Below are positions 1-35,938 of a DNA stretch of 35,938 nucleotides, piece by piece (positions within the stretch are counted from its first letter, which is position 1; every line of letters starts with the position of its first letter). The DNA is taken from NCBI GenBank assembly GCA_900128565.1, contig LT635942.1, forward strand, positions 1-35,938, given 5' to 3'. The DNA comes from Stramenopiles sp. TOSAG23-6 (taxonomy: Eukaryota). A program made the position numbers and the translations under genes. Under the pieces are notes generated by a model. The model made no database searches and had not been told where the DNA came from. It saw only the letters and a list, made by a program, of their open reading frames with translations.

Positions 1-1
1 G

Positions 2-13100: not shown

Positions 13101-16100
13101 TTAATAAGGAGTGTATGAAACATTCTTCAGTGCAAGGTATTCCAGCTAGTAAAGCTTGCTGTGGATGTGGTGGTGGAGATTTCCCATACAAACCTGTTGA
13201 AACATCTCTTAAGAATAGTTTGAACTTTTCATGGCACTCGACATCAGTGTTACCTCTTACAGTGACCGTGTCAGGTGCTGGAACTTCAGCTGTCAATGGA
13301 GTGTATGATTTAGAAATTGCTGAAAAGTCTCAAACTGTGGGCGTCGTTTATATGAAACGTACAATCAATCAAAGCTTGAAGATAATGTATGAGAGTAAAA
13401 ATGGACCAATAATAGCTAATGTTTGGGTAATCACTGATGTTGGATCAAATAAAAAATATTATGCCAATGTGGCTCCCACGCCGTGGCATCTCTCGAATAC
13501 ACCTTGGGTCTTATACTCAAAGATTAAAGGTTTCGGAGAGGGCCTGTTACCAGCACCAAATTCATCGCCACAACCTTGGACTATTGAAATCACCAACCCG
13601 ACTACTGTGTCTGGTTCTAGTGTAAACAAGGTTGATTGTAATGTCTGTGATCATACAGGTGGTGATATGAGCTCTTGTGATGTAAATACATTTGCGAAAG
13701 TTCTACTCGTGGATTCATTGAATTCAACCTGTGTGTCTGGATCCGAATTTTTAGTGACATTTCCCGTCGTTACGAAAGTATGGTGGATTGTTATTGGATC
13801 AAAAGAACCAAATTCGTCTTCTGCGCGAAACTTATGGGAAAGTCAAGCACAAAATGGAGGATTTAGAATTCAATATTCTAATGTTTCATCAACAGGTCCC
13901 TGGAAAATAGCCTTTTCCCAACCAAGTTTATCTGAAAGTATTCTCAAAGGTGATGGTGTGCCTAAAACAATTGATTTGCGACAACCAGTGAAGGCTAAAT
14001 ACTGGCGTTTTATTATGAAATCAATCACGCTGGGTACTCTTCGGTTTGGTGCTCTTGATGAAGTTGAAAATAATGATACAAGTTGGGTCAAAGTATTCAC
14101 TATTGGTGGAAGCACTGCTGATTATTCCGAGAGAATGTATAATGGTAGCCCGTTCGTTGATAATCTAACAATTGACCGCCTTTTTGAAAATACAATGATA
14201 AGTCAAGGTATTATTCGTCGGGATTGTGACAGCTGTAAAGCGTTCGCCGGAGCACATAAGAGAGTGTACTACAAACGGCATACATCTATAGGCACGTTTT
14301 CAGCAAGCTTGTCGATGAAGACTTGGGCTGTAGGAAGTGGCAATTCTATCAATGAAGATTTTAGTTTGTACGGTAATCTTGGCGATGCAGCAGAAGACAC
14401 ATCAAGATGGCCGTCTTCGCATTGTCAAAGTGTACCAGCAAATACCGGTTTTCCTGGAGGGTGTGGTCCTACATCGAAAGATGATACTGCTGCTATTGTG
14501 GATCTATCGAGTCATGTGCAGAGTTTCTATATCCTAGCCAAAAGTGTACAAGGATATGTTATCATTCATAATGGGGATAATTTTACAGGCTACACATTAC
14601 GTTTTGATGGTGCCGGTGATTATGTTGCATGGGATTGGTTTGTGAATCATATAGATTCTCGTGCTTCATTTCCTAATGATTTTGTAACGTCTATTGAAGT
14701 ATATAATGCAGATGTTACATTATATCGCAATGCACCAAGTGATGTAGCCAAACTTGGAATGTCGTTTGCTCCGGGAATTACTCTTGATTATGTAAAAAGT
14801 AAAGTTGATAGAGGTATTACTTTACGCCCTGGTCGATATACTGCAGCTGATTTGATTGTTGCATTTACCCCAACAGAAGTGTTTTACAAAATTGGTAGTG
14901 GCTTTAGAGATCCATGTCAAACTTCAAGAACGAGTCCAAATAAAGTTGATGTTGGGGAAGAATGTGCAGAACAATTATGGATTGAAGCAGGTTGCACTGT
15001 TACCAGTGGTGGTTTACGGTTGAATACACAAAGTTCGTGGAGCAGAGTCTATGATAACTCGGCAACATATACAGCGCTCAAGTCGAAGGCAACTTCTGCA
15101 GCTTCTCTACAACAAGTTAATTTGACTTCACATCGTTCGTGCCAGACTGTTGAACAATGTAGTAAACTCGGCCTTTGTGCTTCACATACACCTACACAGT
15201 ATGCGCTTTTATTTTCTGTTTCATGGATTAGAATACACGAGACAACAGTTGTAAATAATCCAGAGATTGTATCTTATCAAGATTCAGCTAACTTTGCTGC
15301 ATTTTCATTCAGTCCAGATAATTCTCTGTCTGCAACGGAACGGTTTTCTGCACTACGATCTGTGTGCCAAAATCCAAGTGGGGATCCTCATTACACACTC
15401 CGCAAAGCAGGTATGTCCATGGACTTTGCATCAATTCACAGCGGACTTGAAGATATGGATGCGCTTAAAGCATGTAAAGACGCAATCTTAGCTTTAGGTA
15501 CTTCAAAAGCTCCGCCTTTTTGTTACATTGGTCTTGAAATGATCACACCTGAACTTGGGCAAGTTGGTTGGAAATGGGGAGACCAAAGCACAATGTCATA
15601 TATGTACTGGAAGAATGGTCATGGCCATGGAACAATTTCAAATCCTGTTCCACATTTGGCAATAATCAAGCCTCAAAATTATGTGGGTTGGGAGGAAGTC
15701 CCTGCATCTACGCAAATGCAGGGAACTGCTCTTGTTTTATGTCGATCGATGAAGCGAATCAATCCCAAAGGTGCAGATACATCCTGTGATAAAATTGGTG
15801 GCATTTGGAATCTTTCGACAAAAGGAGAAAATATATGTTGTTCGGCGAGTTGTGGAAAATGTAATAGTAATGATTGTGCTTCACTTCCAGGAGGTTCAGC
15901 ACATTGCTGTGCTACGGAAATTTCGGCAAGTGAAAAAATATGCGGTGTGCCTCCGTGTAAACTCCCTCAAGGTACAGGTAATGCCGAGACCATTGTTGAT
16001 GAAACAACGAAGCATTCACTAAAGTATGTTTGTGATAATGATTACATTTTAAGTGGTGCACATCTTGACGATACAGCAAGTCGCACTTGTGGTGTAGATG

Positions 16101-19100
16101 GTCAATGGGCTAGCTCTCCACCTTCATGTGTACTAAAGGGCACATTGCCAATAACCCCAGCTGACGATGAAGCACGAATACAATTATTTGGTCAATTTTC
16201 TAATAAATATTGGCGTAGTGACTCGTCCGCTGGAAAATTTGCATGGGGGGGGATGTTCTCTGATTTCGCATGGGAAATTAAGTTTGACTCTTTTACAGGT
16301 TTTCCTCGTAAATTCGGCGTAAATGCACAGGGATTCACTGAAACATTTATATTGCAAGGTCACTTATCAAGTCAAAGTTCTGGGAAAATGTGGCTCAATA
16401 AAGATCTCTTGTGGATTGACCCTGCTAAAATTGCTAAAATTGATCGCGCATCATACACATGGCGCTTTAAAACTCAAGGTGGTAAAGATCTTGTTAATGG
16501 GTCCATCGTTCATTTGTACAGTGAAAGTAATTTCTATCTTCTAAGTAATGCATCTGAAGGAGTTGGAATTACAATGTCTGGATCTGATACAAACACACAT
16601 ACTGTTGCTACGTCTGCTCCAGGAGACTTTTTAAAGAGTTGGAAAATACAAATAGGTGATGCAGTTGCGGGTGATCTTACATCTCAAATTACCCATTCAG
16701 AATTGAATTTTACATCACCAAAGAGAATATGCGACGCTAAATATTTTAGTAGTGAACCAAGCTATATTGATACATGTTGTGTTGGTTCTGGTAAAAATGA
16801 GAAAGTTTGTGGGATTGGGCAAGGATATTGTGTTCATCGTGAACAGAAAGATGATTCTGATTCAGCTGATTCAGTAAAACATACTGGTTGTCAGACTCTA
16901 ACTTCTGGTTCACGGAGAGAATTACAATGTTCAGATGTTGGTAATTGTCCATGGCAACAAAATAATTCATCACCAGGTAGTGCTTGGTATGGGTGTTGTC
17001 ATCGAGATTATGGAAAACTTCTCTGTCAGAATACAAAAAATGTTTGTAAAGCTCGTGAGGGAACAGATCCGGATCCAATAGCATCTGTAATTGATGGCTC
17101 TTTTAATACATCTTGGATCGCAAGTGTTTCTTCAGCCATGGGAAATACTCAGACAACTACTAGATGCTTACTGATTGACCTACCACTGGATAATTTGTAT
17201 GAAATATCAAGAATTCAAGTGTGGCCAGCGCGTAGTTCTGATGTTCACACATTTGGGATGGTTGATGGCTATCACAACATTGGTGTCGGAAAATGTCGAG
17301 ACAAGACTAATACAGTTCCTGTAGTCACTTGGTTCTTTGACTCAGCAGTGAAAAGTGATGGTTCTTCAGTTGCGTGTCGGATGCAATGTGACAAAATTCC
17401 AGAGTGTGCAGGTTATATGACACATTTATCCTCATCGTCTCCTGCTTTATCAAAATGTGCACTTGTAGGTATTAGAACAGATGAAGGATTTGAAGTTGAC
17501 CGTGCTGATTCTCTTAGTGAATATCGCTGTTTTAAAAAGGCAGGTCGTGATGCAGGTGCGTGGAGGTCAGCTACAGCATATAAAAGTGATGGCTTGGGGG
17601 GATGGAATGCATTGATACCATCGAAGAAACTACTTGATTGTACTGCGCCAGATGAATTATCTCATATATCATCCATGTATCCTATTGAACAGATAGAATG
17701 GCTTAATACGAGTACAGTAAAACTATTTTCATCGAATTTTCCTACAGATATGTCGGTAGGCGAATATATTCAGTGCAAGGGTACGAATTCAGGGCTAGAC
17801 TCTTTGGATAGAGTAAAGGTATCTAATATCAATCGGTCTGCGAATTATTTTGTGGTCACTGTTTCATTAAAAACATTCAACAAACGTGAAGTTGTTGGAC
17901 GTTTTCAATTGGTTTCATATTCTGTTCTCAGTGAGAACATGACTCTTTCTACAACAAAGGTGGTTACATCTACGAAAGAATTGAGAGTTGTTGCCGGTTC
18001 TTATATCAAAATTGATACAGAAATCATGAAAGTCACTGGTGTTGTTTCTGATACTGAATTGACTGTTGTCCGATCTCAAACGGGCACAGCTGCTACACAT
18101 CTAAAAGACAAACAGATATATTTGATACCCAAAAGCGCCAATAGACCCCATACAGTGTTTGAGCGATCTAACACTGCGTCTATTGCATCAGGAGTATCCC
18201 AATTAAAATTGTGCTTTAGTAATCCGTGTTTGAAGCAAAACCGAGTTCTGGATGTATTCAAAGTTGGCGAAGTAAAAATATTCGGATGGAATACAGAAAT
18301 AAACCCTACAGATCCTGGAGGTCAGGTTATTTGTGACGATAAAAAATGTAATGAGTGTTCACTTCCAATTGCTTGTTCTGCACTCACAGGTTGTCAATAT
18401 AACCCAACACAAAAATCTTGTATGGAAGTATGTTCAGAAAATACTTGTGGTTCTTGTACTGAAAAGGTAGAATGCGAAAGCCAAGGTTCAGAAGGGAAAT
18501 GTCAGTGGCATGCTCCTCGTGGTACACTTCCAATTTGTCGAAAATCTATTTGTTCAGTGAATAAATGTAATTTATGTGGTGGAAAGTCAGCATGTGAACA
18601 AAGTGGCGGGTGTATATGGGATAATACAAATTCAAAATGCAATGAGCCTGTAAAGGTTCTCACAATAGAAGGAAGTATTTCGTTGAATGGTATTGACCCC
18701 GCATTTTGGACGGAATTAAAATTAGACGAAATTCTCATAGAAACAATTGCAAATTATGCTACAATTCATCCGAAGTCTATAAAGTTAACTAAAACTGTTT
18801 TAGATGCGTTGCCAGACACCAATACGCCTAATTTACCTAGAATTCTCAGTATATTTGAAATTATCAAAACTGATGCGTCAAAAAATTTATATACTTNTGG
18901 TAATGCAGGTGTTGGGATTTCAGGTAAGGGTGGTGAATGTACTTGTCCAGACAATCAAAAATATATTGTAGGTGACATTTATGATAATTGTACTTTGTCG
19001 TGTATTAATAGGAAAGAAAACACTGTTGGTAATGAAGTTTGTGCAGCAAATGGTGGGCGAAAAGATGGAAAAACCGGTTGGTCGGTAGACTGTAATGCAG

Positions 19101-22100
19101 GTGCAGCAAATGTTGTAAAGTTATTGAATGCTATTTCAGTATCTGATAATCGGAAATTTATCAACACATTTAGTCGTTTAATTCTTGCTCGATCATCGTT
19201 ATCAAAAGTTTCTCCTTCGCCAAGTTATACAATCAAACAAGTCAGATTGTTGACTGATTTGCAAAATCAAACGGTTTATCCTCGTGTTGGTCTTACATTT
19301 GAAGATTCGCGTATACAAAATGAATTATGTGATGTGGATTCTTGTGGTAATTGTAATACTAAGGTGGCATGTGCTAGCAAGAATTGTGTATATGAAGAAA
19401 GTGCGGCTGTGTGGGCGAGCTCAGCATATTCTCCAGTGGGTCAAAAAGGTTCTCTTTCTAATGATGCTACATTAATGACTGTCGCGTGCAACTCTGTCAC
19501 TGAAATTGCTTTTAGTGAAAAAATTTGGACAGATCAGTGTAGCCCTTCAAGTTATAGTGCTTGTGTCGCGGCTTCTTCAACGAATGGTTGTGGGATTTCA
19601 TCTTTATTTGTCAATAGGTGTCATGCACGCACTAATGGTGTACAAGCTTCATTAATTGGTTCACCTGCCAATGCTGCAGCTGGTGGATCAACTATTTGTG
19701 CAGACGCTCGTCTTCAAAGTAGTTTCTGTGTTTCCAAATGTTCCGTATCTTCTTGTAGCTCTTGTGTAAATTCAACAGAATGCAGCAATGTCGGGTGTAG
19801 ATGGGTAACACATTTTACTAACAGCACTAGTGGTACTATTATTGAGAGTTGCGAAGCTCCAAATCCTCCATGTAGCGAGGAAAATTGTGATATGTGTAAA
19901 TCCGTTAATGATTGTTCGACTGTATCTGGTTGTGAATGGTTTGATGATGCACCTTATTCTCGCTGTCGTCCTGATCAATGCAAGGGTGATTGTAGTGCTT
20001 GTGTTAGTTTAGTAGCTGCAAGTATTTCAGCTGAAAGTAGATGTAAAGAACGAGAAGTAGGTACAATTGCGTCTTATGAAGAAGGAGTTCGTTGTCATTG
20101 GTATGCACAAGAGTCTACATGTTTAGATGTCTGTAATCCATGGAACTGTGCAGGGTGTACAACAAAAACCGACTGCAATGCAGACACTACGTATTGTACA
20201 TGGAATGATACGAGTAGTACTTGTTTGGCTAGAAGTACTGACTGTGGAATGACGTGTAATGAGGGAGGAAATGGTGTTCTTTGTGTGCCACAAAATTGGG
20301 TATGTGATGGTACATCTGATTGTCCAGTATCAGAATGTGACGAAAGGGCTTGTACTGATGAAGCTTTTGATATATCTAAAGCTAATAACTTGAGTAACGG
20401 TTGTTGTCGTTGGACAACATACCAGATGAAGTGTATGTCAACATGAATTTCATTTTTTTTTTTCGTACCAAATTTTGCAAGTAAAGATTTTTTATTGACC
20501 AATTTTGAATGTTAAATATTTTTCCACAATACATGTAGTGGCAACACATTTGCAAGAGCTCCTGCTGGATATCATATATCTGATGAAGTTTGTGCGGATT
20601 ATTGTTGTACTACTGCAAATTGCAAGGTGTGGCAATGGAAACCTATATTTGGTTGTTTTGTTGGAGATCCTGCAATTTGTGGTGTTGACGAAAAGGGGGA
20701 AACTTCAACGAGTGGTTGGGAAGGTGGATATAAATCAAGTTCATCGTATACTCTACCTGTACCCGCTAGCGCACAAGTTGCGTGTACGAGTTCGCAAGGT
20801 GAATGTGGAGATGGATCATGTTATGAGTTATATGCTCAATGTGATGGCGTTGACGATTGCGATACTGGTGCAGATGAGTCAGATTGTGGCATCAATGAAC
20901 TTGAATTGTCTGCCAGTTGCAGAGGCATAGTTAAAGTGTATCACGGTAATAAATGGGGAACAATTTGTAACGAAGGTTGGACAGCTCTTAGTGCTAAAGT
21001 TGTATGTGCCCAACTTGAGTGTGGTGGAGTGGTAAATCACCAAGATTTGACATTTGGTCTTGGAGAAGGCCAGATTCACTTGAAAAATGTACAATGTAAT
21101 GGACTTGAAAATAATCTATTTGAATGTTTGACTTCAGATATGAATGGTAATCCGTTTAGATGGGGCGCATCTGGGTGTACCCACGAACAAGACGTTGCCA
21201 TCGTTTGTCAAAATGGTGTACAAAAACCTCCAACGTGTGCGCAGTTGGGTGGTCATTCAGAGTGTGATCAAAATGAATATTGTGGTTTTGGTGGAGCATC
21301 TGATCCATCATGCCTTCCACACGAGGAATGTTGTATTTATCAAGATACATTTAACCAGGGAGCTTGCCCTCATGTTTGTGAAGATTTAGGTTGTACAGAA
21401 CATCGAGGTGCCAACGGTTGCAACACCGATCAGTTTTGTAGTACCACTGGGTCTTGTATGAATCTAGATCAATGTTGCTTCTTCAAGTCTGAGGCCGTTG
21501 GTGGTGCCTGTCCTACAGATTGTACAGGTAAAGAGCGTTGCGAAGGGAAATTACAAAGAGAATCCGTGGGTAGTAAATGCGGTGAATGTAGTCCTTCCTA
21601 TTCAGGGCTTCCTGGAATGGGTAACACTTTATGTACATCAGCGATGACCCCGAGTTCATTTTATCCAAATCCAGTATTTGCTCCATTTTCAGCACAATCC
21701 GCAGGGCCCAGATCACGTTTTGCTGTCGCTGATATTAATAATGATACTTTTGATGATATAGTTATTGGTGGTAAAGCTTCGAAAGGTGAACCCTTGGTGT
21801 ATATGGCTTCAACATCTTGTGGGAAATGGTCTGAGAAAACAGGCAACGAAAATCCATTTCAATACTCTTCAGATGGAAAATCAGGGTTAGTTTTAATTGG
21901 AAGTACGACACTTGGTGAAAATCTTTCTCCCTCATTTGTAGACTTTAATGGAGACGGGTTACAAGATTTATTTGTCGGGACTTCAACTACTATTAGATAC
22001 TTAGAAAATATCACTGCTAGTGGAGTGATAAAGTTTAAAGAAAATGTTGATCAAAACCCTTTTAAAAGCAACCTTCCTTCAAATGGGAAAGATTTCTATG

Positions 22101-25100
22101 TTGTATGGGCTGATCTAGATCAAGATGGTGATTATGATGCTACTATAGGGAACGCTGCAGGCGAAATTGTTGTGTACCGTCGTGATAGTGTTAGTACGTT
22201 AACGAAACTTGAGGAGAAAGATGTAATATGCACTGGAAGTAATGTCAAATGTAAAACGTATACTAAAACTGACTGTGAAAAAGATGCTGCTTGTAGTTTA
22301 GTTTCAAACCCAAACGAAAATCCCTTTTTTTCAGCCAGAAATACCCAAGATTTTGCATTTTCCAGTCTAAAGAGCACGACAATTGCATGGACAGATGTAG
22401 ACACAGATGGTGACTTGGATGCTGTTGTTGGAGATCAACTTGGTTCCTTATTCTATTTTGAAAATATTGGAATGAAAGGCTTAATAACTTTTAAAATTGG
22501 TGGTAATGGTACATTTTTTGAAAATGAAGTCATCGTAAGCAATAATGCAGTTGCGACTGTTGAAAAATGGGTTCCGAGTACCCGGAGTCTTCACGTAAAG
22601 TATGATGGTATGGGATTTCTCACATTCGCAAAGGATGTTGCTGTAGTTGGTCCCAGTGGGACATGGACGACTGAAACTTTTGTCAGTACAATACATTTAA
22701 TTGCTCAAATTGGTTCTGTCAATCCTTTCAATGGGATAATGACACTTGAAAATGTGGCTCCTACATGGATTGATATAGATTGTGATTGTGACATGGATTT
22801 GTTAGTCGGTGGTTCTGCATCTGTAGCTACTGGTGCATCATGTGCTAGTGAAGATCCATCAACAAATTATAAATTATTCAAAAACATCGGTGATACAAAA
22901 CCATCTGTAATGGCAAGGCGTGAAGGGAGTTCAAATCCATTCTTTAGTCTACTGAGTGCTCGTATATCATTCAGTGCACCCGCATTTGTTGATATCGATG
23001 ATGATGGCGACTTTGACTGCTTTGTTGGTACAAAAGAAGGATCAATTGAATACTTTGAAAATATAGGTAGTCCGACAAATCCAGTTTTTACTCATCAAAC
23101 AAGCTCGTCTAACAATCCACTGAGTATGATTAGCGATACAAATATTTATTATACATACCCCGCATTCTTTGATATTGATAAGGATGGTGATTTGGATTTA
23201 TTTATTGGAACGGAAAAAGCGGGTATTAAGTTTTATCTAAATGAAGGTACAAAGAAAGTACCGAAATTTCGGTTAGAAGTAAACGATAATCCTTTGAGAA
23301 GTGCAGAAGCAACTCTGACAACACCATTAAAATTTTCTCGAATTGTTTTTGCCGATCTTGACGGTGATGGAGAATCAAGTTTGTTTATCGGTGATTCAAC
23401 TGGAAGTATTCGAAGCTTGAATAAAGTGTATTGGAAATGGGATTATTGTACAATTGGCACTCAAATCCGCCATTCAACAAAAGCAAATGATCTCGGCCAG
23501 CGAGGCATAATTGTTGGTATTTTAGGCTCGAAATTTTCTATAATATTTGAAGGGTCATTAGACCGAATACTTGTATTACACAACACGAAAGCATCTTGTC
23601 AAAATGATGCCAATAGGTCCTGCGTAGTTGTTGCTAAGAATCGGCATCCATGCCTTCCAGATGTAGCCTGTTGGAAAAATGATTTTACAACGAATGCTTA
23701 TTTTGCTGAACATTGCAAAGATTCATGGACGACTGCATCGGCGACTGGAGTACCTTTAATTGATGTCAATGTTGGCTCACTTGCTCAGCCTTCTTTTGTA
23801 GATATTGATGGTGATGGCGACTTGGATGTTTTCCTTGGCATGACGTCATTCTTTGAAAATATTGGATCATCACTGAGTCCAGTGATGGAATATCGTGATG
23901 CTGTGATGCCATTTGGAGCTCTTGATTTTGGCGTTTTTACTAGTATATCCTGGGTTGATATTGATGGGGATAACGACCCTGATGCGTTTGTGGGAGATAG
24001 CGAAGGAAATATTCATTATTTTAAAAATGTCAGAATTACAGACGAAAATATTGAGATTATTAGTGTTGACTTTTTATCGTATTCTTCAACATATGGAGTT
24101 ACCGTATCTCTGAATTGGACTTCTAGCGAAATGGTTGAGAGTAGTACTTCAAAGGCATCTAATTCGCCTCAATATGTTGTCTACTATGCTGACTCTCAGG
24201 ATAAGGCGGGAAAATGTGGGGCTTCAAATAGAAATTGCGGTCGTGTGTTCCCAGGAATGCGGACATCTACGTCAATTTCTGGTTTAGATCCGAATGTGTC
24301 TTATTATTACTCAATTGGTGTATTACAAGCATCCCATGCTGAAAACGGAGCAGTGTATCTTCCTGTTAAACCACCCATTGACTGCAAAAAAAAAAAAAGT
24401 AGAAGATTATCAAATGGTAATCATGGGCGGAGATTATCTAGTGGTGGTGCATCAAAGGTTCTACCTCCTTTACCCCCAGATATAACCAAAGCATATTTTG
24501 TATACAGAGGTCCTGATCCAGACCCCAAAGCAAATGGTTCTTGTTCAGGTAAACTCTCAACATCTATCGTATGTACAACTTTAACCACGAAGGATACATG
24601 TATAGCAATTGATGGTTGTACATTTAGCGATTCTCATTTGGTCGGTGGTAATATTTTATCTATTGATAGTATTAGTGGCAAGGATCCTAATCGGAAACCA
24701 GGATTGTATGAAGTATCTGTGTTTAGTGGTGGAAGCACTAATAGCAAAGGGGCCGTTTTTACAATTAAAATTGACAATGAAAGTGGTAAGGGAGGCGCAG
24801 TAAGCGTTTTCATAAAAAATGCTGGTGTAAAGTATAAGACAAATGATACAATTACTGTTGCCGATTCTCAGTTAGGTGGTCTTGGTGGAGTAGCCTTAAC
24901 ATTTGATGTAGCAACTGTATCCATTGCGCTGGTGGCATCTGGTGTTGTCAGTGCCGGTGAACCTTCCTGTTGTGCGGCAACTACTTCATATTGTTTTTCG
25001 GGATCTTCATGTGTTCCACCAAATACAGGAATGCCTAATAATATCGTCCGCGGTACAACAAAAATAACAGATGTTTGTCCTGCTAAAAAAGTTAATGGAA

Positions 25101-28100
25101 ATGCAACTCTAATGTGTAATAATAAAAAACGAGAATTATTGTTAACGTCGTGTACAGGAACGCCAAAGCCATGTCAACATACAGATTTCCAAAATAATAA
25201 ATCTAGGTGTCCAACCTCAAACGGGTGTGTATACACTGTATCTGGATTTATTGCACAACTTGCGCTTGCTTGGCGAAATGCTAATGCAAAACTTAAATCT
25301 GGTGAAATTCGGTTAGATGTTAAGAACTATCGTGTAAGATGGTCAAAAGATGCTTTGATGAAGTCGAATTCAAAATGTATAGATTTATCAAGTTCTCCTA
25401 CGCCTCCACCATGTGATCAAATTTTTGTCAATTTGGGTAATGCATGTGACAATAGAGAAGGCTGTTCCTGGAATTCCGATGGGTCATGTAAAGGAACGGC
25501 AACCCCATGTTCCGATGCTTCAATGCAAGGTGATAAAAACAAGTGTACAACATTTAATGGCTGTAAGTATATAGAACAAGAGAAAATCACACAGGCGACA
25601 ATACTAACAACAACATCACGTAACCCAGTTACAGCAGATGGTGATTGGTACGTTGACGTTACTCCTTATAGTGTACTTGGGGCAGGAGTACCAACAACTA
25701 TACTAAAAGTACAATGTGGTCCAGGTCAATTTAGACCTTCATCCAATGAATGGCTGAATTTACCATTTAGTTTAATGAATCGAAGCAATGGTTGTGCTCA
25801 TTGTGTTCCTGGCAAGTATCAGAAGAATGCAGGGAAATCATCCTGTTCAATATGTCCGGCAGGGAAGTTTAATCCAGATATTGCATCGACCGACTCTAGT
25901 GCATGTGTTCCGTGCATTGCAAAAACATATTGTCCTGCTGGTTCATCGGAGCAGCTACCTTGCCCAGCAGGATTTTATTGTCCACAACCCAATATTAAAT
26001 CTCTGTGTGCTACAAAGGGTTCAAAGTGCCCGCAAGGTTCTACTCAAGAAGGCACTTGTCCTTCAGGTAGTTTTTGTTCTGATCCAACAAAGCAAAAGAA
26101 ATGTGTTTTAGGCGTTGATGATAAAACAACAAGTGGTGTAGATGAAAGCATAGGTATACATTGCCCTGCTGGTGTAACTGTCCCCATTCAATGTGAAGCT
26201 GGTTACATTTGTTCAAATCCATCAACGAAGGTTAAATGCAATGATGGGTTTTATTGTCCATTAGGATCTATTTCACAGACTAAATGTTTGAAGGGACACT
26301 TTTGTCCTACTCCTCTCGAGCAAAAGGCGTGTACGAGAAACTATTGTGTAAAGATTGATGACAAAGGTAATCAGACAAAAGAACCTCTTATTAAGGATAA
26401 AACTAAATGTATCAGTTCATGTAGTGAGAGTGCAATATCCGTTGAACTCTTATGTAAAAACGTATGTACGAAATCGTGTACTTCAAGTGATGGTACAGGT
26501 GTAACAGAATGTAGTAATGCTAATTTATATTTCACAGGATCTTGTGACAATCCAAAATCTGCAGATATCAAAGATTCATGTGGTCATTGTAGCGTTGCTG
26601 TTAAAAAGACGAATACAGAATGTTCAGATGTAAAAGGAATTTGGACTGCAGGTGTATGGACAGAATCTACAAAAGAAACCGTGGATGCTGAAGTTAATTG
26701 TAAAAATGCCCACTCATCTTGTATATATGTAGGTCCACCAGTTGGCTCGCAGGAGGTTTGCTCGAAAGGTGATCATACAAAGACAGGAATATGTTTACCA
26801 AATTCACCGACTAATTGCTACAAAACAAGCCAGAGTGCTTGTACAAATGTTGCAGGATGTGTATGGAAAACAAAAGTACAATGTGCGGCACAAGATTCTT
26901 CGTGTTGTTTACATAATTGTACTGACGTTGCACAGACATCAACTTCATGTGGGAAGATCTCAGGTTGTAGCTGGAAAAATTTGGCATGGACTCCACGTCA
27001 GTGGACGAATCATTTATGGATAGAGGCAACATTATGCGAAGCTGGTTATACACAGCAAATTATATGCCCAGCTGGCTATTCTTGTCCCACCGTATCATCA
27101 AAAACTGCATGTCCAGCGGGAACTTTTTGTGAAGCTGGCTCTAGTAATCCAGTAGAATGTCCCGCGGAGTTCTATTGTCCTCGAAGTGATACGCAACAGT
27201 TATGGGGTTTAACGAAACGCCCTTGTGTCGTAGAATTGCATCATTGTCCTCCTAAATCTGTGACAGCAAACATTTGTCTTGCATCTGCTTGGTGTCCAGT
27301 ACCTAGTAAACAAGAAACAATAACAGTAAAAGTTATAGGTACTGTACGTGGATATGATGTAACATCTGGCCTTCGATATCAAAATGCTATCATTGATCCC
27401 ACTGTAGCTCCCACAAATTACGGTAGTGATACAAACACAAGAAAACTTTCTACAAACACAAGAAAACTTTCTACTCGAGACTGTTTAAGCCCTGGCCAAT
27501 GTGAATTGTTTGACAATACGCCTTGGGATAGTGGTGGTGTAATTCCAATCTGGGTAGAACTTTCCCCAAATGAATTAAAAGGATTAGATAAAGGCACACG
27601 GTTTACAAATAGACATATAGTAACTTGTGAAATTCATACTACGAATACTGCTAATGTACAGCTCGAAGGTGCTCAAATTGAAATAAATCCGTCCAATGGA
27701 ATTGGAGTTTTTAGTAATTTCAAAATTATTATGCCTCCTGGAGGAACTGCAACTATGTATATCTCATGTACTTCAGTCCCTAATGTTCGCGTATCACCAC
27801 TCAATGAATATCCTATTGATGGATTTATGAAAGGTATAGTTGATAATCTAAAGGTAGGAGAAGGTCAATCTGAAACTAATTTCTACAAAACAATTGCACC
27901 AAAAAGATATTTTTCGGTAAAACTTCGCCCGTGTACGTTTTTCATCATTCATTTCAATTTTAGGTGTTTCATAGAAAATTCCATATTTAACAAAGTCTAA
28001 TTTCTAATTTCACATATTTTTTCACAATACATGTGTTCGAGGGGAAACCATTGTTGAAAATATTTGTACAAAATGTGTTTCTGGGAAATATTCCTGGGGA

Positions 28101-31100
28101 TTTCCTGTCATTGCGCCTCCAGCTTCAGATGCAACGATTTGTTTGGACTGTCCAAATCCTGGTGGTTATTGTCCTGGCGGTGATGTTATTGTTGCACAGA
28201 AAGACTATGTATTTTTTTATCATTCATTTCATTTGTTTTTTCATACGAAATTTTGTACCTAACAATTTAATTTTGCGACATATTTTTCAATATACATTGG
28301 AGATCGGGTAAGAATTCAACTTCTTTCTACTCGTGTTTTAATGATTTTGAATGTCAAGGACACACTAAAGATACTGATAATAGCATGTACACTAGTGCGA
28401 ACTTCACCATGCTAGAAGGATGCAGTGAAGGACATGGTGGTATTCTTTGCTCTGTTTGTATTGATGGTTATGTCATGGCACCTGATGAAACGTGTCACAC
28501 ATGTCCTCCGCGTGAATACACTGCAATATTATTTATTATTGTAATAGGGGCTATAATACTCTTTTTACTTAATTTGTGTTATTTTACTCGTAAACCAGAA
28601 AATGGACCTGACTATGAACATTTGCGCCAGCCTGTGGTGTCACCTGGCACTGCAAGGAGAATGACGGCTCATCATTTAAAAACGAAGTCAACCACTCGTA
28701 TTGCAGACTTAATGCTTAATGCAAAAGTTGATTACAATGCCTTTATTCAGAGAATAGAGGAGGACGATTGCATTACTTCGAGTTCCGATGAAAACGACGA
28801 TGAGCCAAAGTCTGCCGAACTGTTACGTAGAATTCGAATTCGCGACCAAATCGATTCACAAATTGTTGATGTTAATGATATATTCTTTGGTGGTTATATT
28901 GGTGCTTCTGTTGCTGGAAATACTGCACATCGAATGCAAGAATTACAAGTAATGAATAGTCGACAAAGACATCACGCTTCAAAGACTTCAAAAACTTCAA
29001 AGGAAAGAAAAAACTCACTTTCACCAAAAAGAGGTGATTTTGTAGCAAGTAACCACAACCACAACGGGTCAAATATTCAAAATGCATCCAATCTAGGTGC
29101 TGTGAGTTATGGTGTAGGTGAACTTGCCGATTCGAAATCTCGAGTTGCTCTGGAAGATGTTCGAAGATCTATGTTAGATACAGGTTTGGTTGACGCTCAA
29201 GATATTGCAGGAGCAGTTGTTGGCGATGAAGCAGTCCAAGACGTTGTTGGTGCAGATACAGAAGTTGATGCAAAAGAGATTGTCATGGAAAGATTAAGTA
29301 TGGCAATGAAAAGTGAAAAGGGAACTGAAATAAAATCTGCTGTGATAAATCGCGTCGGTGCTGGCTCGGGTGCTGGGGAGGAAAAATCAGCACTTAGTCA
29401 AGCATTTGAGGATGCTACGTCCGGTGCACTTGATACTGGCTTGGTTGACGTTGAAGATATGGCAGGAGTTGTTGTGGGTGAAGATACAGTGGAGGATATT
29501 GTTGGAGCGGATACAGAAGCGGATGCAAAGGAAATTGTTGCAGAAAGATTAAAAGCTGCAGTGGAAAGTGAAAAGGCAGATGAAATGAAAGAAGCAATTC
29601 GTGGGGCAGCTGAAACCAAGAGTGGCGGACCATCTGATGAGCCTATAAAACAAAACAATAATGATTCACTACCAGGTGATGATGATGGAAATTTTTCAGA
29701 TCTTGACATGGAAGCACTAAATGCTCAAATCAATGAACTTGCTGAGGAAGAATTTTTATACGGTGCAAATGAAGCAGGNGAGGCNGCAATGGTTGAAGCG
29801 AAATCGGAGTTAGCAAAAATGAAGGGTATATTAAGCGATGCTGATGAGTATTGGACTTCAATCATTGCAAAAACAAAGATTCTCATTGGTTATTTACAAA
29901 TTGTGTCACAATTCCGTTTTGTATTGGATGCACGTTTTCATTTTAATTTTTTATCTAAATTTTGTTTTCGTACGACATTTTGTACCTAACAAATTTTGAA
30001 ATTGTTTTTGAAATATTTTTTCACAATATATGTACCTTGGCCAAATTTATATACTGGTTGGATGAATTTACTTGACGCATTAAATCTGGATTTAATTGAC
30101 ATTTTCGGAAATATCAATGTTTGTCAATTGTCCGTACCATTTACCGAAAAATTTATATTTATAATTCTATTTTTTCCAATTACAATACTACTGCTCTTAC
30201 TTGCACGAGCGTCTGCATTTGGATGCCGTGCGACCAAAATATATTTTGGCAAACAAGCACAATTCTTCAAGTTTAGTGTTACAGATAAGTTTTTCAAAAT
30301 TACAAATTTGATATACTTTTTACTTTATCCTTCGGTAGCATCTAAAACATTTATGGTGTATAAATGTGAAGAAGTTGGTGGTGTCGAATATCTCCGACGT
30401 CAAATGAATGTAACATGTAGTTGGGACCCTAAAAAAAGTCATTGGGCATACTTAGGTATGGCAGCAATAATTTTTGGCATTGGCTATTTAATTGTAATTC
30501 CTATTTGTTACATTTTTCTATTATACCGAAATCGCCAAATTTTAGCACACCCTCATGATGCACCTCATAAAGTTCCAGGCCTCTTAGAAGACGAAGAAGT
30601 AATGCGACGATACAGAAAACGCCTCAGTCGTTTTGGAAATGTATTTAGTCCATATACATATGGTTACTGGTGGTTTGAATGGTTTACACTACTTCGAAAA
30701 CTTATGCTTACAGGTGGTCTTGTTTTGGTTTCCGAGGGAAGTGCCGCGCGGATTAGTTTAGGTCTGGTAATTAGTTTCTTCTATCTTGTTGTAAGTGCAA
30801 ATATTGCACCATTTTACGATCCTTATGATGATATGCTTAGTCAATTAGCATCGATATTGCTTTTTTTGACATTGTTATGTGGACTCGTCTTAAAGATGGA
30901 TTTTGCTGAGGAAGGTAGGTATGAAAATTCTGTAATTGATGCGGTATTGATGATAATGAATATCGGAATTGTACTTGTTGGCATTTTTATTCTTATCATG
31001 GCAATACCACCTTTACGGCGACGTATTGAAGATTTTATTCACCGCCGTAAAGTGGAAAGGAAAAGGAGAATAACATTTGCTGGTCGTAAATTTGTTCGGA

Positions 31101-31555
31101 AAGTCCCCTCAAAATGGGATTTAGCAAAAAAGGCTGAAGAGGAGAGAGAAATTGACGAAAAATTTGGATTGAAGCGAAGTTCTACTCGTGCTATTCCGAT
31201 ATCACCTCAAGTATTAGAATTAAAGCAATTAAATGATAGCAGTTTCNATTCGTCTGATTCAGATGGGAGTCAAAATCAGCTTCATTTACTTCGTCGGAGT
31301 CAGAGGCACAAGTCAATTATCCGCAGAAATAGATTAAATAGCCCCGTACAATCTAAGAAACACACACGTCGTGATTTAGGTTGGTCATCTGGAGTATTTA
31401 GATCAAAGAAAGAACGTTCTGAATTTGAAATGATCACATTGGATTCAGATGGAAATGATTTGAATTCTCCTGAGCCACTTTTAAGAACGAAACGATTAAT
31501 GAAAACTAAAAGTTTTATGCGACCAAATATTTTAAAGGATGACGATAAAATATGA
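2..31555 (+). CDS. Giant multidomain cysteine-rich cell-surface/receptor-like protein, 5'-partial, about 10,400 aa or more. Joined model: ~2-1116, ~1121-2562, ~2563-6841, ~6843-20432 (three +1 breaks), then exons 20535-27932, 28033-28208, 28298-29929, 30032-31555
   Basis: Consecutive same-strand ORFs with continuous domain content. The frame is open from position 2 (KECSNQSILKG). Domains recognisable by motif: many PAN/apple, F5/8C-like, PA14, LamG, EF-hand, C-type lectin, Sushi, PSI-like, LDLa, SRCR, FG-GAP, FN3, GCC2/GCC3 repeats and C-terminal TM helices. Only the last piece has a plausible end (TGA 31553-31555 followed by AT-rich UTR). Confidence 0.8.
1071..2567 (+). CDS. Giant gene segment 2 (F5/8C-like domain with ShK-like insert, PAN, start of PA14)
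   Basis: EYVQASF...IAVQYS...W...F..PVSSKHFRI discoidin-like pattern; CIDHCDSNQMCAGVSYNYDEGKCY PAN motif. Confidence 0.75.
   Translation: MENFLSVTKFVKRRHACTNPKTYVNIETGECSDNGNVWNKKRCCDTKTCSVSMLNSENLDAIASVLVRFNIDSIDDDDKPTFGTTTGTKIERSSGDLESSCNASKEKCADPLFRTKCAASCCENEDAGEYVQASFESERLVGSISVAILSSSWKCDETNQIAVQYSNEGLPSSTWITVATLASRLSKLSNSGDSRKTTVVFKTPVSSKHFRIFMTATPIGCPPSHPYAIAWKSTSKARCYEKNDQYSEVCRYTGSSPAPKGTTWADNQVTCPPSQHIDSIKLKLGSMVFLPPGEASRNVLYKRFVTIELKNSIKLTRKDIVEQTLSGASGVVVHSRTGTIHYLELLGRAEFIPTLNISVSGVDKGEIVFVVNDCGHDQVLLPKTASMNVSCDAISQCIDHCDSNQMCAGVSYNYDEGKCYIRTSVNDGSSIIHRSPIFSTTPCPEGTFYGEYYQSNNLSGSIDWAGCEDKHNEKTRQSVNYMKISSSGVTCGGTALKM
2560..6876 (+). CDS. Giant gene segment 3 (PA14, multiple PAN, CBM6/35-like, phage-like repeat); frame open from 2560, upstream of the listed 2737 start
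   Basis: 2560-2736 translates KCNYFSYDTNKSCDLFKEC... without a stop; PA14 motif YKFIVQADDGSRLWLDGKIIHDQW...HTIKVEMQEYGG. Confidence 0.8.
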   Translation, partial: KCNYFSYDTNKSCDLFKECRSRDWKKFSGTYLYFLGGIYYRDNYTERSFSNHVLSGHKYLNKFSVCYTGDMMIESGVYKFIVQADDGSRLWLDGKIIHDQWNRCCRTWTTYGIEIVGGMHTIKVEMQEYGGRAYINFKWEPDTSQKNSSVNVQSDPFQCFAKRSHNVNIHTSTRESWEPVFASIPQDCQSSGGCANGQIAAVKWIESDTGYKDLAILNEQQLSLEKCKEACYKRGIKSGCKGISYHKKGWGCILESFTVDDTNEKPSTKATCKQISGVLCTSAGANKTTCTSLGSGCSYDDKNSSCINSCTGHTDKTSCENASKNCFFYAAGDIKTLVISVVTGNTINNTVVSLIASQNGRLDEEIVSGTFDSTGYADLNKSSYTNLQNGTSSLVALVNDTDVIEVVGAGKQELNGIYIRDSSTSYKLETDLGLNYYIQESNNHWQLVKKNAGKVTNIFYFAERAKIPHDVRLPPESGWSKNGINGIADGEGDWPAPRLIHEILTSKQNVDIDVISHWVHCGTEHSAETCNCPGGYVRYGAFNRSPVCASKTSIDSSDCVSKFGKQDCPCIYVEKSVRCNNGTFGDPWGGIGKTCQCNTSHLLSADFYFLVSDNVPEAAGKSCAVGSVISTTTSYSLVGQCAVLCRNTKDCRYFVFSGNVGSKACSLFSSCPQNEWYTPGYPNTKMYRLKSELEVKSLTCEYPFDVATSAGRRLTRISDGVCNGVPVKTVKDTSITACESECVNTNNCVTISFCPKESVLCTGNHAGLCNLYLANQCSFVDFVTVGNSGYVTFSMDKSKEDVTPTKLYDLYTGNGAVAFSGVDDQNLNFVVSVPSELCTTGTTATTVDSGTVCCSSTCGNKISTIRCSGSNYTPGTYSGIKAKDVQSSTNGTKASFDITVDKDGNISVCEINNAGIGYEKNDVIQFETNNIGTSGGRDEVTVTSVAGICSQDSTCSTLIGGANSCCPTTIKNNNVECTTSTQSSCVLPQSYNNCGGEGIKNITFRSLVSTNAKISLQVQVNGVTLPKPITAKPAPVGTLNEGDLSWESLMIKGTLRVGTNTISVKIDPSTLFSSDAIAGKLDGQAFETKTNTRLLHCMKACREKANCMSINHSDDNKCELNNQVIGKCNTCNKYSTEGWSYYAKYPTGIAIDSVVISGWPSDLPRPDFQNTFTKFSQSRWIIKRLLAPTGGDALQTGTLSVLKQKCVSNYFNSKVCTSISCDMKTKDSALVLDIDDCTAWYGVKEWVKSDLVISFVLRYSEDFFEPFEGNGKCSGSNDDQVQLTPYYVLPAPERSLDECKEVCLQYELCVGISYADFADVSGTPAICEIAILELDTGKPPDEIEGLPLFGAQSFMTGSSGSNSCSKGTKTDKSGDYSKFQAYRLCSDRNLKLQSDLTPETEHLCSTSEKARKSCFPLTGASYNAPKKNKSPIPTFYIN
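6827..20432 (+). CDS. Giant gene segment 4 (LamG, PAN, F5/8C-like, EF-hand, crystallin-like, C-type lectin, Sushi, PSI-like, LDLa), ending at intron A
   Basis: 13.6 kb open frame; WHHIGATYDG..KLYANG (LamG); DSNASGTLSQDE (EF-hand); YIGL...WKWGD...Y.YW (CTLD); YVCDNDYILSG...TCGVDGQW...PSC (Sushi); CVPQNWVCDGTSDC (LDLa). Confidence 0.85.
20433..20534 (+). other. Non-canonical intron A (GTATGT...AATACAT, 102 nt)
   Basis: T-rich, contains an in-frame stop; removal gives ATG AAG TGT AGT GGC (MKCSGNTF...) and joins the 4539-aa and 2457-aa ORFs in frame; family motifs TTTCGTACC and AAATATTTTTCCACAATACAT. Confidence 0.85.
20535..27932 (+). CDS. Giant gene exon (PAN, LDLa, SRCR, FG-GAP/VCBS propeller repeats, FN3, GCC2/GCC3 Cys repeats)
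   Basis: CDGVDDCDTGADESDC (LDLa); GIVKVYHGNKWGTICNEGW...VVCAQLEC...CTHEQDVAIVC (SRCR); many P.F.DxDxDGDxD repeats; CPAG(F/Y)xC repeats. Confidence 0.85.
27430..27474 (+). repeat. Perfect 21-bp tandem duplication (TNTRKLS x2)
   Basis: tacaaacacaagaaaactttc twice, followed by tac. Confidence 0.95.
27933..28032 (+). other. Non-canonical intron B (GTACGT...AATACAT, 100 nt)
   Basis: Removal gives KLRP-CVRGETIVENICTKCVSGKYSW; ends ATATTTTTTCACAATACAT like the other copies. Confidence 0.85.
28033..28208 (+). CDS. Giant gene internal exon (Cys-rich juxtamembrane repeat), in a frame different from the listed 28033..28311 ORF
   Basis: Translates (C)VRGETIVENICTKCVSGKYSWGF...CLDCPNPGGYCPGGDVIVAQKDY. 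Confidence 0.85.
28209..28297 (+). other. Non-canonical intron C (GTATTT...TATACAT, 89 nt)
   Basis: Removal restores CPGGDVIVAQKDY-WRS, the C.GG......(G/D)YWR motif of this receptor-like family, and sets the frame of the 28385 ORF; contains TTTCATACGAAATTTTGTACCTAAC. Confidence 0.9.
28298..29929 (+). CDS. Giant gene exon (C.EGH.G.LC..C motif, first TM helix, long cytoplasmic loop, start of the next TM)
   Basis: CSEGHGGILCSVCIDGY; hydrophobic AILFIIVIGAIILFLLNLCYF; KTKILIGYLQIV. Confidence 0.85.
29174..29600 (+). repeat. Diverged internal duplication (two ~57-aa copies, period 255 nt) in the cytoplasmic loop
   Basis: LDTGLVDAQDIAGAVVGDEAVQDVVGADTEVDAKEIVMERL vs LDTGLVDVEDMAGVVVGEDTVEDIVGADTEADAKEIVAERL. 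Confidence 0.9.
29930..30031 (+). other. Non-canonical intron D (GCACGT...AATATAT, 102 nt; GC donor)
   Basis: Removal restores YLQIVSQFRFVLD-VPWP; contains TTTCGTACGACATTTTGTACCTAAC and TTTGAAATATTTTTTCACAATATAT; no AG inside the intron or for over 150 nt downstream. Confidence 0.85.
30032..31555 (+). CDS. Giant gene terminal exon: multi-pass membrane domain and cytoplasmic tail
   Basis: Several hydrophobic helices with FLLYPSV...F..Y.C, YL....V.C, FG.VFSPY...YWWFEW..LLRKL.LTG, PFY...DD.L motifs typical of protist Cys-rich GPCR/TRP-C-like receptors. Confidence 0.85.
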   Translation, partial: VPWPNLYTGWMNLLDALNLDLIDIFGNINVCQLSVPFTEKFIFIILFFPITILLLLLARASAFGCRATKIYFGKQAQFFKFSVTDKFFKITNLIYFLLYPSVASKTFMVYKCEEVGGVEYLRRQMNVTCSWDPKKSHWAYLGMAAIIFGIGYLIVIPICYIFLLYRNRQILAHPHDAPHKVPGLLEDEEVMRRYRKRLSRFGNVFSPYTYGYWWFEWFTLLRKLMLTGGLVLVSEGSAARISLGLVISFFYLVVSANIAPFYDPYDDMLSQLASILLFLTLLCGLVLKMDFAEEGRYENSVIDAVLMIMNIGIVLVGIFILIMAIPPLRRRIEDFIHRRKVERKRRITFAGRKFVRKVPSKWDLAKKAEEEREIDEKFGLKRSSTRAIPISPQVLELKQLNDSSFXSSDSDGSQNQLHLLRRSQRHKSIIRRNRLNSPVQSKKHTRRDLGWSSGVFRSKKERSEFEMITLDSDGNDLNSPEPLLRTKRLMKTKSFMRPNILKDDDKI

Positions 31556-31724
31556 AGTTGCTTAAAAGAAATAAATTAAACTTAAGTGAATCATGTATTT
31601 TTCTTTGTAACCATTTGAAAAATAAATATAGTGATAACTCATTTATTTTTTCAATTTTTTCAATTTGTTCATATTTTATTTAATTAACGGATCATTTTTC
31701 GTTGCTCCAGTCCCATTGATTGAT

Positions 31725-34437: not shown

Positions 34438-35871
34438 ATGCAACACTTTCTAACTTTCATTGTTTACGCCTCCATCATTCAAGGAACATTTTCATGCACT
34501 AATTATATGGTTACCAGAGGTGCATCAAATGATAATAGTACCATTGTGGCGTACAATTCTGATGGGTTTTCTCTATTTGGGTATCTTAAACACTTGCCAG
34601 CACAAGAATATGTCCCAGGAACTTTACGTGATGTGTATGACTTTACAAGTGGCAAATTTTTGGGTTCAATTCCAGAAGTATCGGCTACGTATAATGTGGT
34701 TGGTAACACAAATTCGGAAGGCCTTTCGATAGCAGAAACAACTTTTGATGGAATCGAAAAACTTGCAGAACCATTTCCTGGATCCATACTTGACTATTAT
34801 TCTTTAATGTGGATCACTCTTCAACGTACAAAAACTGCTCGTGAAGCAATCGCGACTATGGACATTTTAACTAGTAAATATGGATATGCGTCGACCGGAG
34901 AGTCATTTTCAATAGCAGATACGAAAGAAGTTTGGATCATGGAAATGATTGGTCGTGGGTTACATGAAAAAGGTACTGTTTGGGTGGCTAGAAAAATTCC
35001 TAATGGCGCCATCTCCGGCCATGCAAATCAGGCACGTATAGAATCCTTTCCTCTCAATTCCACAGATACTCTTTATTCTTCTGATATTTTTGAATTTTCT
35101 AAAAGGAACAATCTCACTGCACAAAATCTACCCAATTCAGAATTTAACTTTGCTCAAACATGTATGCTTTATTTTTTTTTGGTATGAATTTTTTTTTCAT
35201 ACGAAATTTTGTACCTAACATTTTTTTTTTGAAATATTTTTTCAGAATACATTTGACCCTATCACCTCAATTGGTGCACGCGCATGTGACCTTAGGGTAT
35301 GGAATTTTTTTCGTTTAGCTCTAGGCAAACAAAAAGGCAGAAAATTTGCAGATAAATATCTCGAATATGTGAAAGGTTACAATTTAAGTAGACGAATGCC
35401 TCTATGTATGTNGTATTTTTTTTTTAACAAAAAAATCGAATTTATTTTTCGTACGAAAATTTGTACCTAACAAATTTAAGTTTTTTTTTTTTGAAATATT
35501 TTTCAAAAATACATACGTACAAGTTGGTAATAATAAAGTGAGTGTCAATGATACGATGTGGGCGATGAGAGATCGATATCAAAACACGTGGTTTGATCAA
35601 AGTGGTCGTGATAAGCCCGACATTAGTGCAGGGCCATTCCATTCCCTAGTAAGAACAAGACCTTTAGCATTTGAATTGGGACAAAAAAAATATTCATTCG
35701 AAAGGAATGTATGTTTTATTTTTTTTTTTTTTGTATGAATTTATTTTTTATAGTAAATTTTGTACCTAACAAATTTTAGGGTTTTTTTTTTGAAATATTT
35801 TTCCAAAATACATGTTGGTTATCAAGGAACTTTTTTCAACTTTGTTGCCAATAGTCGTGGTCATTTTAAAT
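34438..35871 (+). CDS. Peptidase family C69 (dipeptidase/secernin-like Ntn hydrolase), 3'-partial; exons 34438-35161, 35253-35405, 35515-35708, 35814-35871
   Basis: Signal peptide then nucleophile Cys (TFS-CTNYMVTRGAS); GLSIAETTF, LQRTKTAREAI, YGYASTGESFSIAD..EVWIMEMIG, HANQARI. Spliced continuation FAQTFDPITSIGARACDLRVWNFF...RMPLYV...MRDRYQNTWFD...ERNVGYQGTFFNFVANSR. Confidence 0.92.
35162..35252 (+). other. Non-canonical intron E (GTATGC...AATACAT, 91 nt)
   Basis: Removal gives CAA ACA TTT GAC CCT (QTFDP); using the nearby CAG (35243-35245) gives an immediate TAA. Confidence 0.92.
35406..35514 (+). other. Non-canonical intron F (GTATGT...AATACAT, 109 nt)
   Basis: Removal gives RMPL-YVQVGNNKVSV; full family motifs present. 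Confidence 0.9.
35709..35813 (+). other. Non-canonical intron G (GTATGT...AATACAT, 105 nt)
   Basis: Removal gives FERN-VGYQGTFF; in-frame stop inside; full family motifs present. Confidence 0.9.
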
Positions 35872-35938
35872 GTATGTTTTATGTTTTTTCAAATTCGATT
35901 TTTTTTTCGTACGAAATTTCGTACCTAACGATTTTTTT
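35872..35938 (+). other. Intron H of the same family (5' part; runs off the window)
   Basis: AAAT|GTATGT followed by TTTCGTACGAAATTTCGTACCTAAC. Confidence 0.85.

Follow-up and report, generated by a model that had tools for sequence, protein, structure and literature searches.

The stretch analysed here, a window of 35,938 nucleotides (nt) taken from contig LT635942.1 (positions 1 to 35,938, forward strand) of the GenBank assembly GCA_900128565.1 of Stramenopiles sp. TOSAG23-6, is compact eukaryotic DNA with a G+C content of about 38% (37.8%) and holds three genes. Two of these, a gene for a giant cysteine-rich membrane protein and a gene for a peptidase of the C69 family, are unrelated to each other and are interrupted by copies of one and the same AT-rich intron family. 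The family comprises seven complete introns of 89-109 nt and an eighth that is truncated by the window end, all lying in the sense orientation of their genes; the complete ones most likely run from a GT or GC donor to a terminal AT in place of the usual AG. The original prediction, which was made from the letters of the sequence, had proposed the seven complete introns; each of them could be located and its exons joined in frame, and an eighth starts at 35872. The host genes and the introns are given below, with intron coordinates in the unshifted register (shift 0, GT/GC...AT), whose choice is discussed further on.

1..31555, + strand: gene for a giant cysteine-rich membrane protein; long open reading frames (ORFs), 5' end truncated by the window, TGA stop at 31553-31555; host of introns A-D
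20433..20534, + strand: intron A, 102 nt, GT...AT; family member by alignment; joins ORF 6812-20446 to ORF 20516-28000 in frame
27933..28032, + strand: intron B, 100 nt, GT...AT; family member by alignment; in frame
28209..28297, + strand: intron C, 89 nt, GT...AT; homolog-supported junction
29930..30031, + strand: intron D, 102 nt, GC...AT; homolog-supported junction
34438..35938, + strand: peptidase C69 (dipeptidase) gene (Pfam PF03577, E 1.1e-36), 3' end truncated by the window; host of introns E-H
35162..35252, + strand: intron E, 91 nt, GT...AT; homolog-supported junction
35406..35514, + strand: intron F, 109 nt, GT...AT; homolog-supported junction
35709..35813, + strand: intron G, 105 nt, GT...AT; homolog-supported junction
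35872..35938, + strand: intron H, 5' part alone (window end); starts AAAT/GTATGT (slash, exon-intron border) and carries the core ...CGTACGAAATTTCGTACCTAAC

The intron bodies, which contain 15-23% G+C as against the 37.8% of the window, share a common design. Their donor dinucleotide is GT in seven of the eight and GC in D, and the longer donor G[T/C]A[T/C]GT is present in six, the exceptions being C (GTATTT) and E (GTATGC). All eight copies contain a 27-nt core with the consensus TTTTTCGTACGAAATTTTGTACCTAAC, which each of them matches at 18-26 of the 27 positions. A branch-like motif resembling TACTAAC, TACCTAAC, ends 33-49 nt from the 3' end in every complete intron; the form GTACCTAAC is found in six of the eight (C-H), while B has TTTAAC and A has TTGAC. 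A run of T residues lies ahead of the 3' end in all seven complete introns, and the 19-nt 3' block ATATTTTT-Y-CA-n-AATAYAT occurs seven times on the + strand of the window and not once on the - strand (mean of 0.075 in 200 shuffles). The intron family is not a product of chance. Introns A and B are the most diverged (22/27 and 18/27 of the core, respectively), yet their donors and last 12 nt are almost unchanged. That these two drifted in the core but kept their ends argues for selection on the ends, and it suggests that the ends, the 3' block above all, may be what the processing machinery reads.

Some further regularities of the intron body stand beside this design. About 40-55 nt from the 5' end of each intron, the core holds a C[A/G]TAC that is complementary to the GTAYG of the donor; TTTCGTACGAAA is a perfect palindrome, and in intron E the minimum free energy (MFE) fold includes a GTATGAA...TTCATAC hairpin. 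Through this complementarity the donor might be zipped onto the branch site; alternatively, it may be what is left of an inner inverted repeat.

Homologous proteins speak directly to most of the junctions. The joined C69 protein aligns without a gap across E, F and G to ten out of ten homologs, and junction C (Y/WR) is likewise gapless with all three homologs that cover it (P0122, P0141 and P0142). At D, the model 29930-30031 alone yields the spacing of eight residues from ILIG..QI.S to WP that is found in five of five homologs, again without a gap; two other donors, 29921 and 29934, were rejected, since the spacing would then be 5 or 10 residues and not the 8 of the homologs. At B the homolog alignments do not decide, and the placement of junctions A and B would follow from reading frame and family membership.

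To these alignments we added an enumeration of every in-frame GT/GC...AG pair lying no more than 30 nt from each border. At C, E, F and G the in-frame alternatives with a terminal AG change the length of the protein by -9 to +18 codons or bring in a stop: the alternative for C deletes five residues, all nine GY...AG alternatives for F delete between 3 and 18, and the sole GT...AG alternative for G creates a stop codon. Around the borders of D, no in-frame GY...AG pair exists within 30 nt. The two AG alternatives at B would remove 3 or 5 residues, and A is the only intron with a GT...AG alternative that leaves the length unchanged, at shift +4 and at the cost of one changed residue. Judged by the homologs, then, five of the seven junctions (C, D, E, F and G) are fixed at the codon level and no AG acceptor would reproduce them; a terminal AG is present in none of the seven complete introns in any register that gives the homology-confirmed mRNA. 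Intron E contains a T-tract followed by CAG (TTTTTTCAG) 7 nt before its end, the use of which would shift the frame or lose a residue, and F and G carry AAG and TAG, respectively, each 34 nt before the intron end and downstream of the branch motif. As acceptors, these AGs inside E, F and G would evidently be passed over.

The original prediction had pointed out that short direct repeats flank every intron, and this holds for all seven complete copies: from A to G the repeats are TGTA, TGT, AT, ATG, ACAT, AT and ATGT. Together they amount to 22 nt, as compared with a mean of 5.1 for random position pairs in the window, and none of 20,000 random sets of seven reaches 22. Because of these repeats, several cut registers give identical mRNA, and the equivalent shifts are as follows.

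Intron A: -1..+3
Intron B: -1..+2
Intron C: -2..0
Intron D: -2..+1
Intron E: -4..0
Intron F: -2..0
Intron G: -2..+2

Only shifts 0 and -1 are common to all seven, the former giving GT...AT (GC...AT in D) and the latter TG...CA (TG...TA in D). With shift 0, all eight introns begin with G, all seven complete ones close with AT, and GTAYGT occupies positions +1 to +6, where any strong U2-type donor has it; the only variants are the GC donor of D, the T that D has for C at -3, and exon position -2, which is G in A and B and a synonymous third codon position. Ordinary introns tolerate variation at just such places, namely a GC donor, the pyrimidine at -3 and exon position -2. Since the GT-AT register confines the variation to them, it is favoured and is the most likely of the registers, an argument from parsimony and not a measurement. 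When recomputed, the shift of 2 nt upstream gave the termini that had been claimed for it: four introns (C, E, F and G) acquire AT...AC, D acquires AT...AT, and the remaining two (A and B) acquire GT...AC. The mRNA is indeed the same in both registers for C-G, and at A (AAG versus AAA) and B (CCG versus CCA) the two differ synonymously, as had been stated. With the registers at A and B separated by silent bases, protein evidence cannot decide between shift 0 and shift -2.

When set against the recognized classes of intron, the family has the donor of U2-type introns (GT/GC within a GTRNGT-like donor) and their branch (yUnAy, TACTAAC-like, before a pyrimidine tract), while the 3' AG of that type is found in none of seven; with AG absent, these are not GT-AG introns. 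Introns of U12 type have the donor RTATCCTT and a branch TCCTTAAC roughly 10-26 nt from the 3' end. Here the donor ATCC occurs in none of the eight (in the -2 register the donor would read RTG[T/C]AYGT) and the branch-like motif lies 33-49 nt from the 3' end in all seven complete introns, and on these two grounds they are not of U12 type. As with introners, near-identical introns recur in unrelated genes, in this case as eight copies in two genes. Additionally, the introns have inverted ends, (AT)GTAT...ATAC(AT), of just 6-9 nt, and flanking repeats of 2-4 nt with AT as their common part; the inverted ends and flanking AT look like the footprint of a small DNA transposon, AT / GTAT...ATAC / AT. 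In four of the six introns that were folded, these ends form the closing helix of the MFE or centroid fold. A DNA transposon would be expected to have copies between genes too, or in either orientation; in the window, antisense or intergenic copies number zero, but only about 4 kb of it is non-coding.

We propose, with moderate confidence, that the interruptions are GT/GC...AT spliceosomal introns of the introner type, all belonging to a single family. They would represent a young transposon-type intron family, an introner, in which an element GTAT...ATAC with short inverted ends has a duplicated AT on both sides and is removed from the pre-mRNA, most likely by the major (U2-type) spliceosome. 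The 5' cut would lie just ahead of the first G in G[T/C]A[T/C]GT, a strong donor of the ordinary kind; TACCTAAC, 33-49 nt before the 3' end, would act as a TACTAAC-like branch site; and the 3' cut would follow the T of the conserved block made up of the T-tract, CAn and AATAYAT. The 3' AT would then be the second copy of the target duplication, comparable to the duplicated TAC that makes the 3'AC in the larvacean-type precedent of Fritillaria described below, and splicing from the first G of the element through the end of the second AT would restore the gene. A more sweeping version of this proposal is one that we put forward tentatively, as possible but doubtful: the 3' rule of the major spliceosome would have changed from AG to AU throughout the genome, and the ancestral introns would all have given way to the GU/GC...AU offspring of one introner. 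Under such a genome-wide rule the spliceosome would skip well-placed AGs such as that in intron E and read the last intron base as a U facing the first G. The original prediction had left two options, a U2-type spliceosome with a YAT acceptor or a strongly diverged minor-like class. Both were sound as options and the evidence favours the U2-type one; what had been overlooked is the footprint of flanking repeats with inverted ends, the uniform TG...CA register and the precedent of a 3'AT acceptor.

Seawater RNA libraries provide a further view of the organism and of the intron family. Fourteen seawater runs each contain 5-18% of the sampled words, and four runs (X1, X2, X3 and X6, from three studies) were aligned to 19000-29778, a region that spans introns A, B and C. 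Exon contigs with 0-1 mismatches over 150-440 nt are present in all four; the organism is marine, real and transcribed. Contig depth is unfit for ranking the parts of the gene, and nothing was drawn from it. At the core of intron C (28231-28268), 11 and 13 contigs of X1 diverge from the window before 28231/28232, and 5 and 14 diverge after 28265/28268. Core-matching contigs that diverge on both sides were drawn in X1, X2, X3 and X6, and some of them show other exon-donor borders, for example ...TT/GTACGT and ...AT/GTATGT. The many distinct diverging contigs imply that the family has many more members. In the RNA libraries these members represent unspliced RNA, excised introns or carried-over DNA, and contigs in which an element is joined to exon sequence are found in them, poly(A) libraries included. 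Two apparent joints, 20475>28014 and 28034>28233, proved to be two-piece alignments of other family members and were rejected as splices. Protein searches for transcript-derived matches across the junctions returned none that is more than 64% identical, and hence none that derives from this organism. In public DNA, a 17-nt word from the core matched 118 metagenome, 17 viral and 87 prokaryote-genome stretches, all of them single chance matches; the 118 metagenome and 17 viral stretches were inspected and contain no other motif of the family, and the 87 prokaryote stretches were judged from their listing alone.

Several points weigh against the proposal of spliceosomal GT/GC...AT introns. Across 19000-29778, no contig of the four runs bridges A, B or C in either spliced or unspliced form, and the sole contig that crosses an exon-intron border (X1, 20267-20476) runs unspliced into intron A; we infer the removal of the introns solely from protein homology. 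The pairing of the inverted ends has no stable conserved fold (0 consensus pairs, z-scores of +2.0 to -3.5), and one of the six introns folds better than its own shuffles. Recent copying, and not function, may account for much of the conservation in sequence, and all eight introns sampled come from two genes within a single 36-kb window. Intron-end pairing is known as an A...C or G...G interplay of the first and last bases, and we know of no model spliceosome with a first-G/last-U pair. Finally, the register at shift -2 gives the same mRNA at five of the seven introns and a synonymous one at A and B.

Taken as the true one, that register would have the cut 2 nt upstream: C, E, F and G (and probably H) would have the termini AT...AC, D would have AT...AT, and A and B would have GT...AC. 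Their removal would fall either to a U2-type spliceosome able to use AT-AC termini or to a strongly diverged U12-like one. AT-AC is an established pair of termini, with its A...C interplay of first and last bases. Rare U2-dependent AT-AC introns have been reported (PMC1557818) and one marine mirusvirus family has a minority of AT-AC introns (PMC12768974), both of which we counted in favour of this register. Its termini, however, would be less uniform: the first base is A in five and G in two of the seven, and T in one further family member known from a loose contig end, whereas the last base is C in six and T in one, so that A and B would have a G-C and D an A-T pairing, which breaks the known A...C or G...G pairing of intron ends in these three. 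The conserved GTAYGT would be displaced from +1 to +6 to +3 to +8. As U12-like introns, the copies would lack ATCC in the donor and have their branch, at 33-49 nt, too far from the end; an Rfam scan of the window found nothing, and there is no U11, U12 or U6atac gene in it, though the window is small. We regard the -2 register as unlikely on this balance. More improbable in our view is a route outside the spliceosome, be it an excision of DNA resembling that of ciliate internal eliminated sequences (IESs), with TG...CA ends and 'pointer' repeats, or a euglenid-like, spliceosome-independent route at the RNA level. The TG...CA/TA register does fit all seven introns, the ends are inverted, the direct repeats are short and variable, AG is absent, and the one RNA-library contig that crosses a border is unspliced; the nonconventional introns of euglenids and hemistasiids likewise show end pairing and repeat-like borders (PMC11282704; PMC12621601). 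Against both forms of this route stand the textbook spliceosomal donor and branch motifs, rightly placed, with the donor kept even in the diverged A and B. An excision of DNA would have no need of the sense orientation seen in eight of eight copies, and it fits poorly with the element-bearing, exon-joined contigs of the RNA libraries, poly(A) ones included, although carry-over of DNA could account for these. A ciliate-like setting also agrees poorly with the use of TAA and TGA as stops and the lack of any in-frame stop in more than 4,500 codons, unlike in most ciliates, while a route by end pairing would have to work with about six AU-rich pairs and no conserved fold.

The more trivial explanations, that ordinary GT...AG introns have been mis-delimited or that the genes are decaying pseudogenes or assembly artefacts, seem to us very improbable. 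In their favour are the same-length GT...AG alternative of intron A at shift +4, with its one changed residue, and the three homopolymer-type frame breaks and ten single Ns of the assembly. Mis-delimitation is countered by the in-frame AG alternatives themselves, which break the gapless homolog alignments at C, E, F and G and do not exist for D, and by the recurrence of the same non-AG block at seven of seven ends; the good conservation of the exons, at up to 64% identity (<=64%) to homologs, speaks against pseudogenes. Two other candidates were discarded on inspection. Translational bypassing does not suit take-off and landing triplets that share AT only, with four of the seven elements not codon-aligned, and for group II or group III introns the copies are too short, sit in a nuclear-type gene context and have no domain structure.

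With regard to known systems, the GT-AT reading finds its closest known case in Fritillaria. In these larvacean tunicates, 3'AT is the commonest acceptor, at 44% in Fritillaria pellucida and 34% in F. borealis, with processing by a U2-type spliceosome, a normal U-rich tract ahead of the acceptor and duplicated U2AF subunits (PMC13326754; preprint 10.1101/2025.08.15.670264). In F. borealis, the 3'AC comes from a TAC that stands in the exon ahead of the intron and recurs at the intron's end (PMC11282704). The resemblance would extend to a descent from non-autonomous transposons, there miniature inverted-repeat transposable elements (MITEs), with inverted ends and target duplications and with a 3' dinucleotide that comes from the duplicated target, TAC to AC there and AT here (PMC13326754; PMC11282704). 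The retention of a U-rich tract with a non-AG acceptor is also shared, and at the level of sequence the logic AT/GTAT...ATAC-AT/ fits. Conversely, the termini of Fritillaria are highly diverse and its commonest donors are AG (AG/AC 18%, AG/AT 16%), in an animal host (PMC13326754), whereas the present introns are one family with a canonical donor (G[T/C]AYGT in 6/8) and a yeast-like branch motif in a protist-looking host.

The introners of Micromonas, Aureococcus, dinoflagellates and others provide a second parallel in that they too are many near-identical, short and uniform introns in unrelated genes of marine hosts, with a transposon-like footprint; the introners described use GT/GC...AG, unlike those found here (PMC9860276, PMC12130899, PMC3879977). 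The curation of one introner survey took 3' sites as AG or AC and discarded mainly noncanonical families that failed a transcript check, so introns of a family with AT at the 3' end could have dropped out at that stage (PMC12130899). Amoebophrya A25 and A120 are likewise marine protists with repeated introns, direct repeats of 3-5 nt that overlap the borders, inverted-repeat ends and an ambiguous border; they differ in having no dominant dinucleotide, inverted repeats of 8-20 nt and no detected U1, as opposed to the uniform termini and canonical donor seen here (PMC7789003). With U12-type AT-AC introns the family shares the possibility of AT...AC at four of its seven complete members and a branch motif that ends in CTAAC, near CTTAAC; it departs from them in having no RTATCCTT donor, a branch at 33-49 nt versus about 10-26 nt, and A, B and D breaking the AT...AC pattern. 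The nonconventional introns of euglenids and hemistasiid diplonemids also combine non-GT-AG borders with end pairing and repeat-like border sequences, but their termini are variable and often GC-rich, with extensive pairing and no polypyrimidine tract, in contrast to the uniform termini, T-tract and roughly 6 bp of pairing in our introns (PMC11282704; PMC12621601). A canonical donor and branch together with one uniform non-AG acceptor equally set the family apart from the introns of the mirusvirus (PMC12768974) and of Amoebophrya ex Karlodinium (PMC12005148), as far as their descriptions go. Our searches of the literature brought up no account of a uniform class of GT-AT introns, nor the phrase 'GT-AT introns', though the organism's own genome paper may describe the feature. 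What would be new, among the cases compared, is the combination of a fully canonical donor and branch with a single, uniform non-AG acceptor in one family.

Few signals in eukaryotes are as constant as the AG that closes an intron, and explanations of why the two ends need G...G (or A...C) still draw on a small set of mutant studies and structures. If the GT-AT reading is true, the family would be a natural test case in which a textbook donor and branch are kept and the 3' end is AT, thereby isolating the 3' rule; in Fritillaria and Amoebophrya, by contrast, all features vary together. In practical terms, standard gene finders and splice-aware aligners would mis-annotate each intron-bearing gene of this organism, and introner surveys limited to AG or AC acceptors could overlook a family ending in AT.

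The remaining content of the window concerns the genes themselves and the state of the assembly. Between the two intron-bearing genes lies the third gene:

31725-33632, - strand: leucine-rich-repeat (LRR) gene, intronless

The giant gene has Pfam matches to PAN, PA14, F5/8C, Laminin_G_3, LDLa, SRCR, FG-GAP, Ephrin_rec_like, DUF7630 and TRP, the last as a TRP-like C-terminus. For the C69 peptidase the best homologs, up to 64% identical, are marine sequences, and those of Triparma and Prymnesium come next. The giant gene and the LRR gene are convergent, with about 170 nt (31556-31724) between their stops, TGA and TAA, a spacing that indicates a very compact genome. Intron density is uneven: the first 20.4 kb of the giant gene (1-20432) have none and its last 11 kb have four, while the peptidase gene has four within 1.5 kb and the LRR gene none. 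No viral hallmark gene is present in the window, a mirusvirus or giant-virus origin having been considered; the former came into view because of the AT-AC introns of one mirusvirus family (PMC12768974).

Three frame breaks in the giant ORF (1071-1132, 2560-2567 and 6812-6876) were examined as candidate introns and rejected. Those at 2560-2567 and 6812-6876 adjoin homopolymer runs (CCCCCAAAAAAAACAAAAG near 6835), where a change of one base restores a sensible reading, and the break at 1071-1132 is probably a one-base indel too; all three are likely indel errors of the assembly, or else signs of a decaying 5' part of the gene. Ten isolated single Ns are scattered at 18897, 29779, 29785, 31247, 32711, 32753, 32822, 32829, 32907 and 35412, nine of them within the last 6.2 kb of the window; they may stand for ambiguity codes that were masked where a site is heterozygous or of low quality. 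Finally, the giant gene contains an in-frame, perfect tandem duplication of a 21-nt unit (seven residues) at 27430-27471, around which the RNA contigs of run X6 break.

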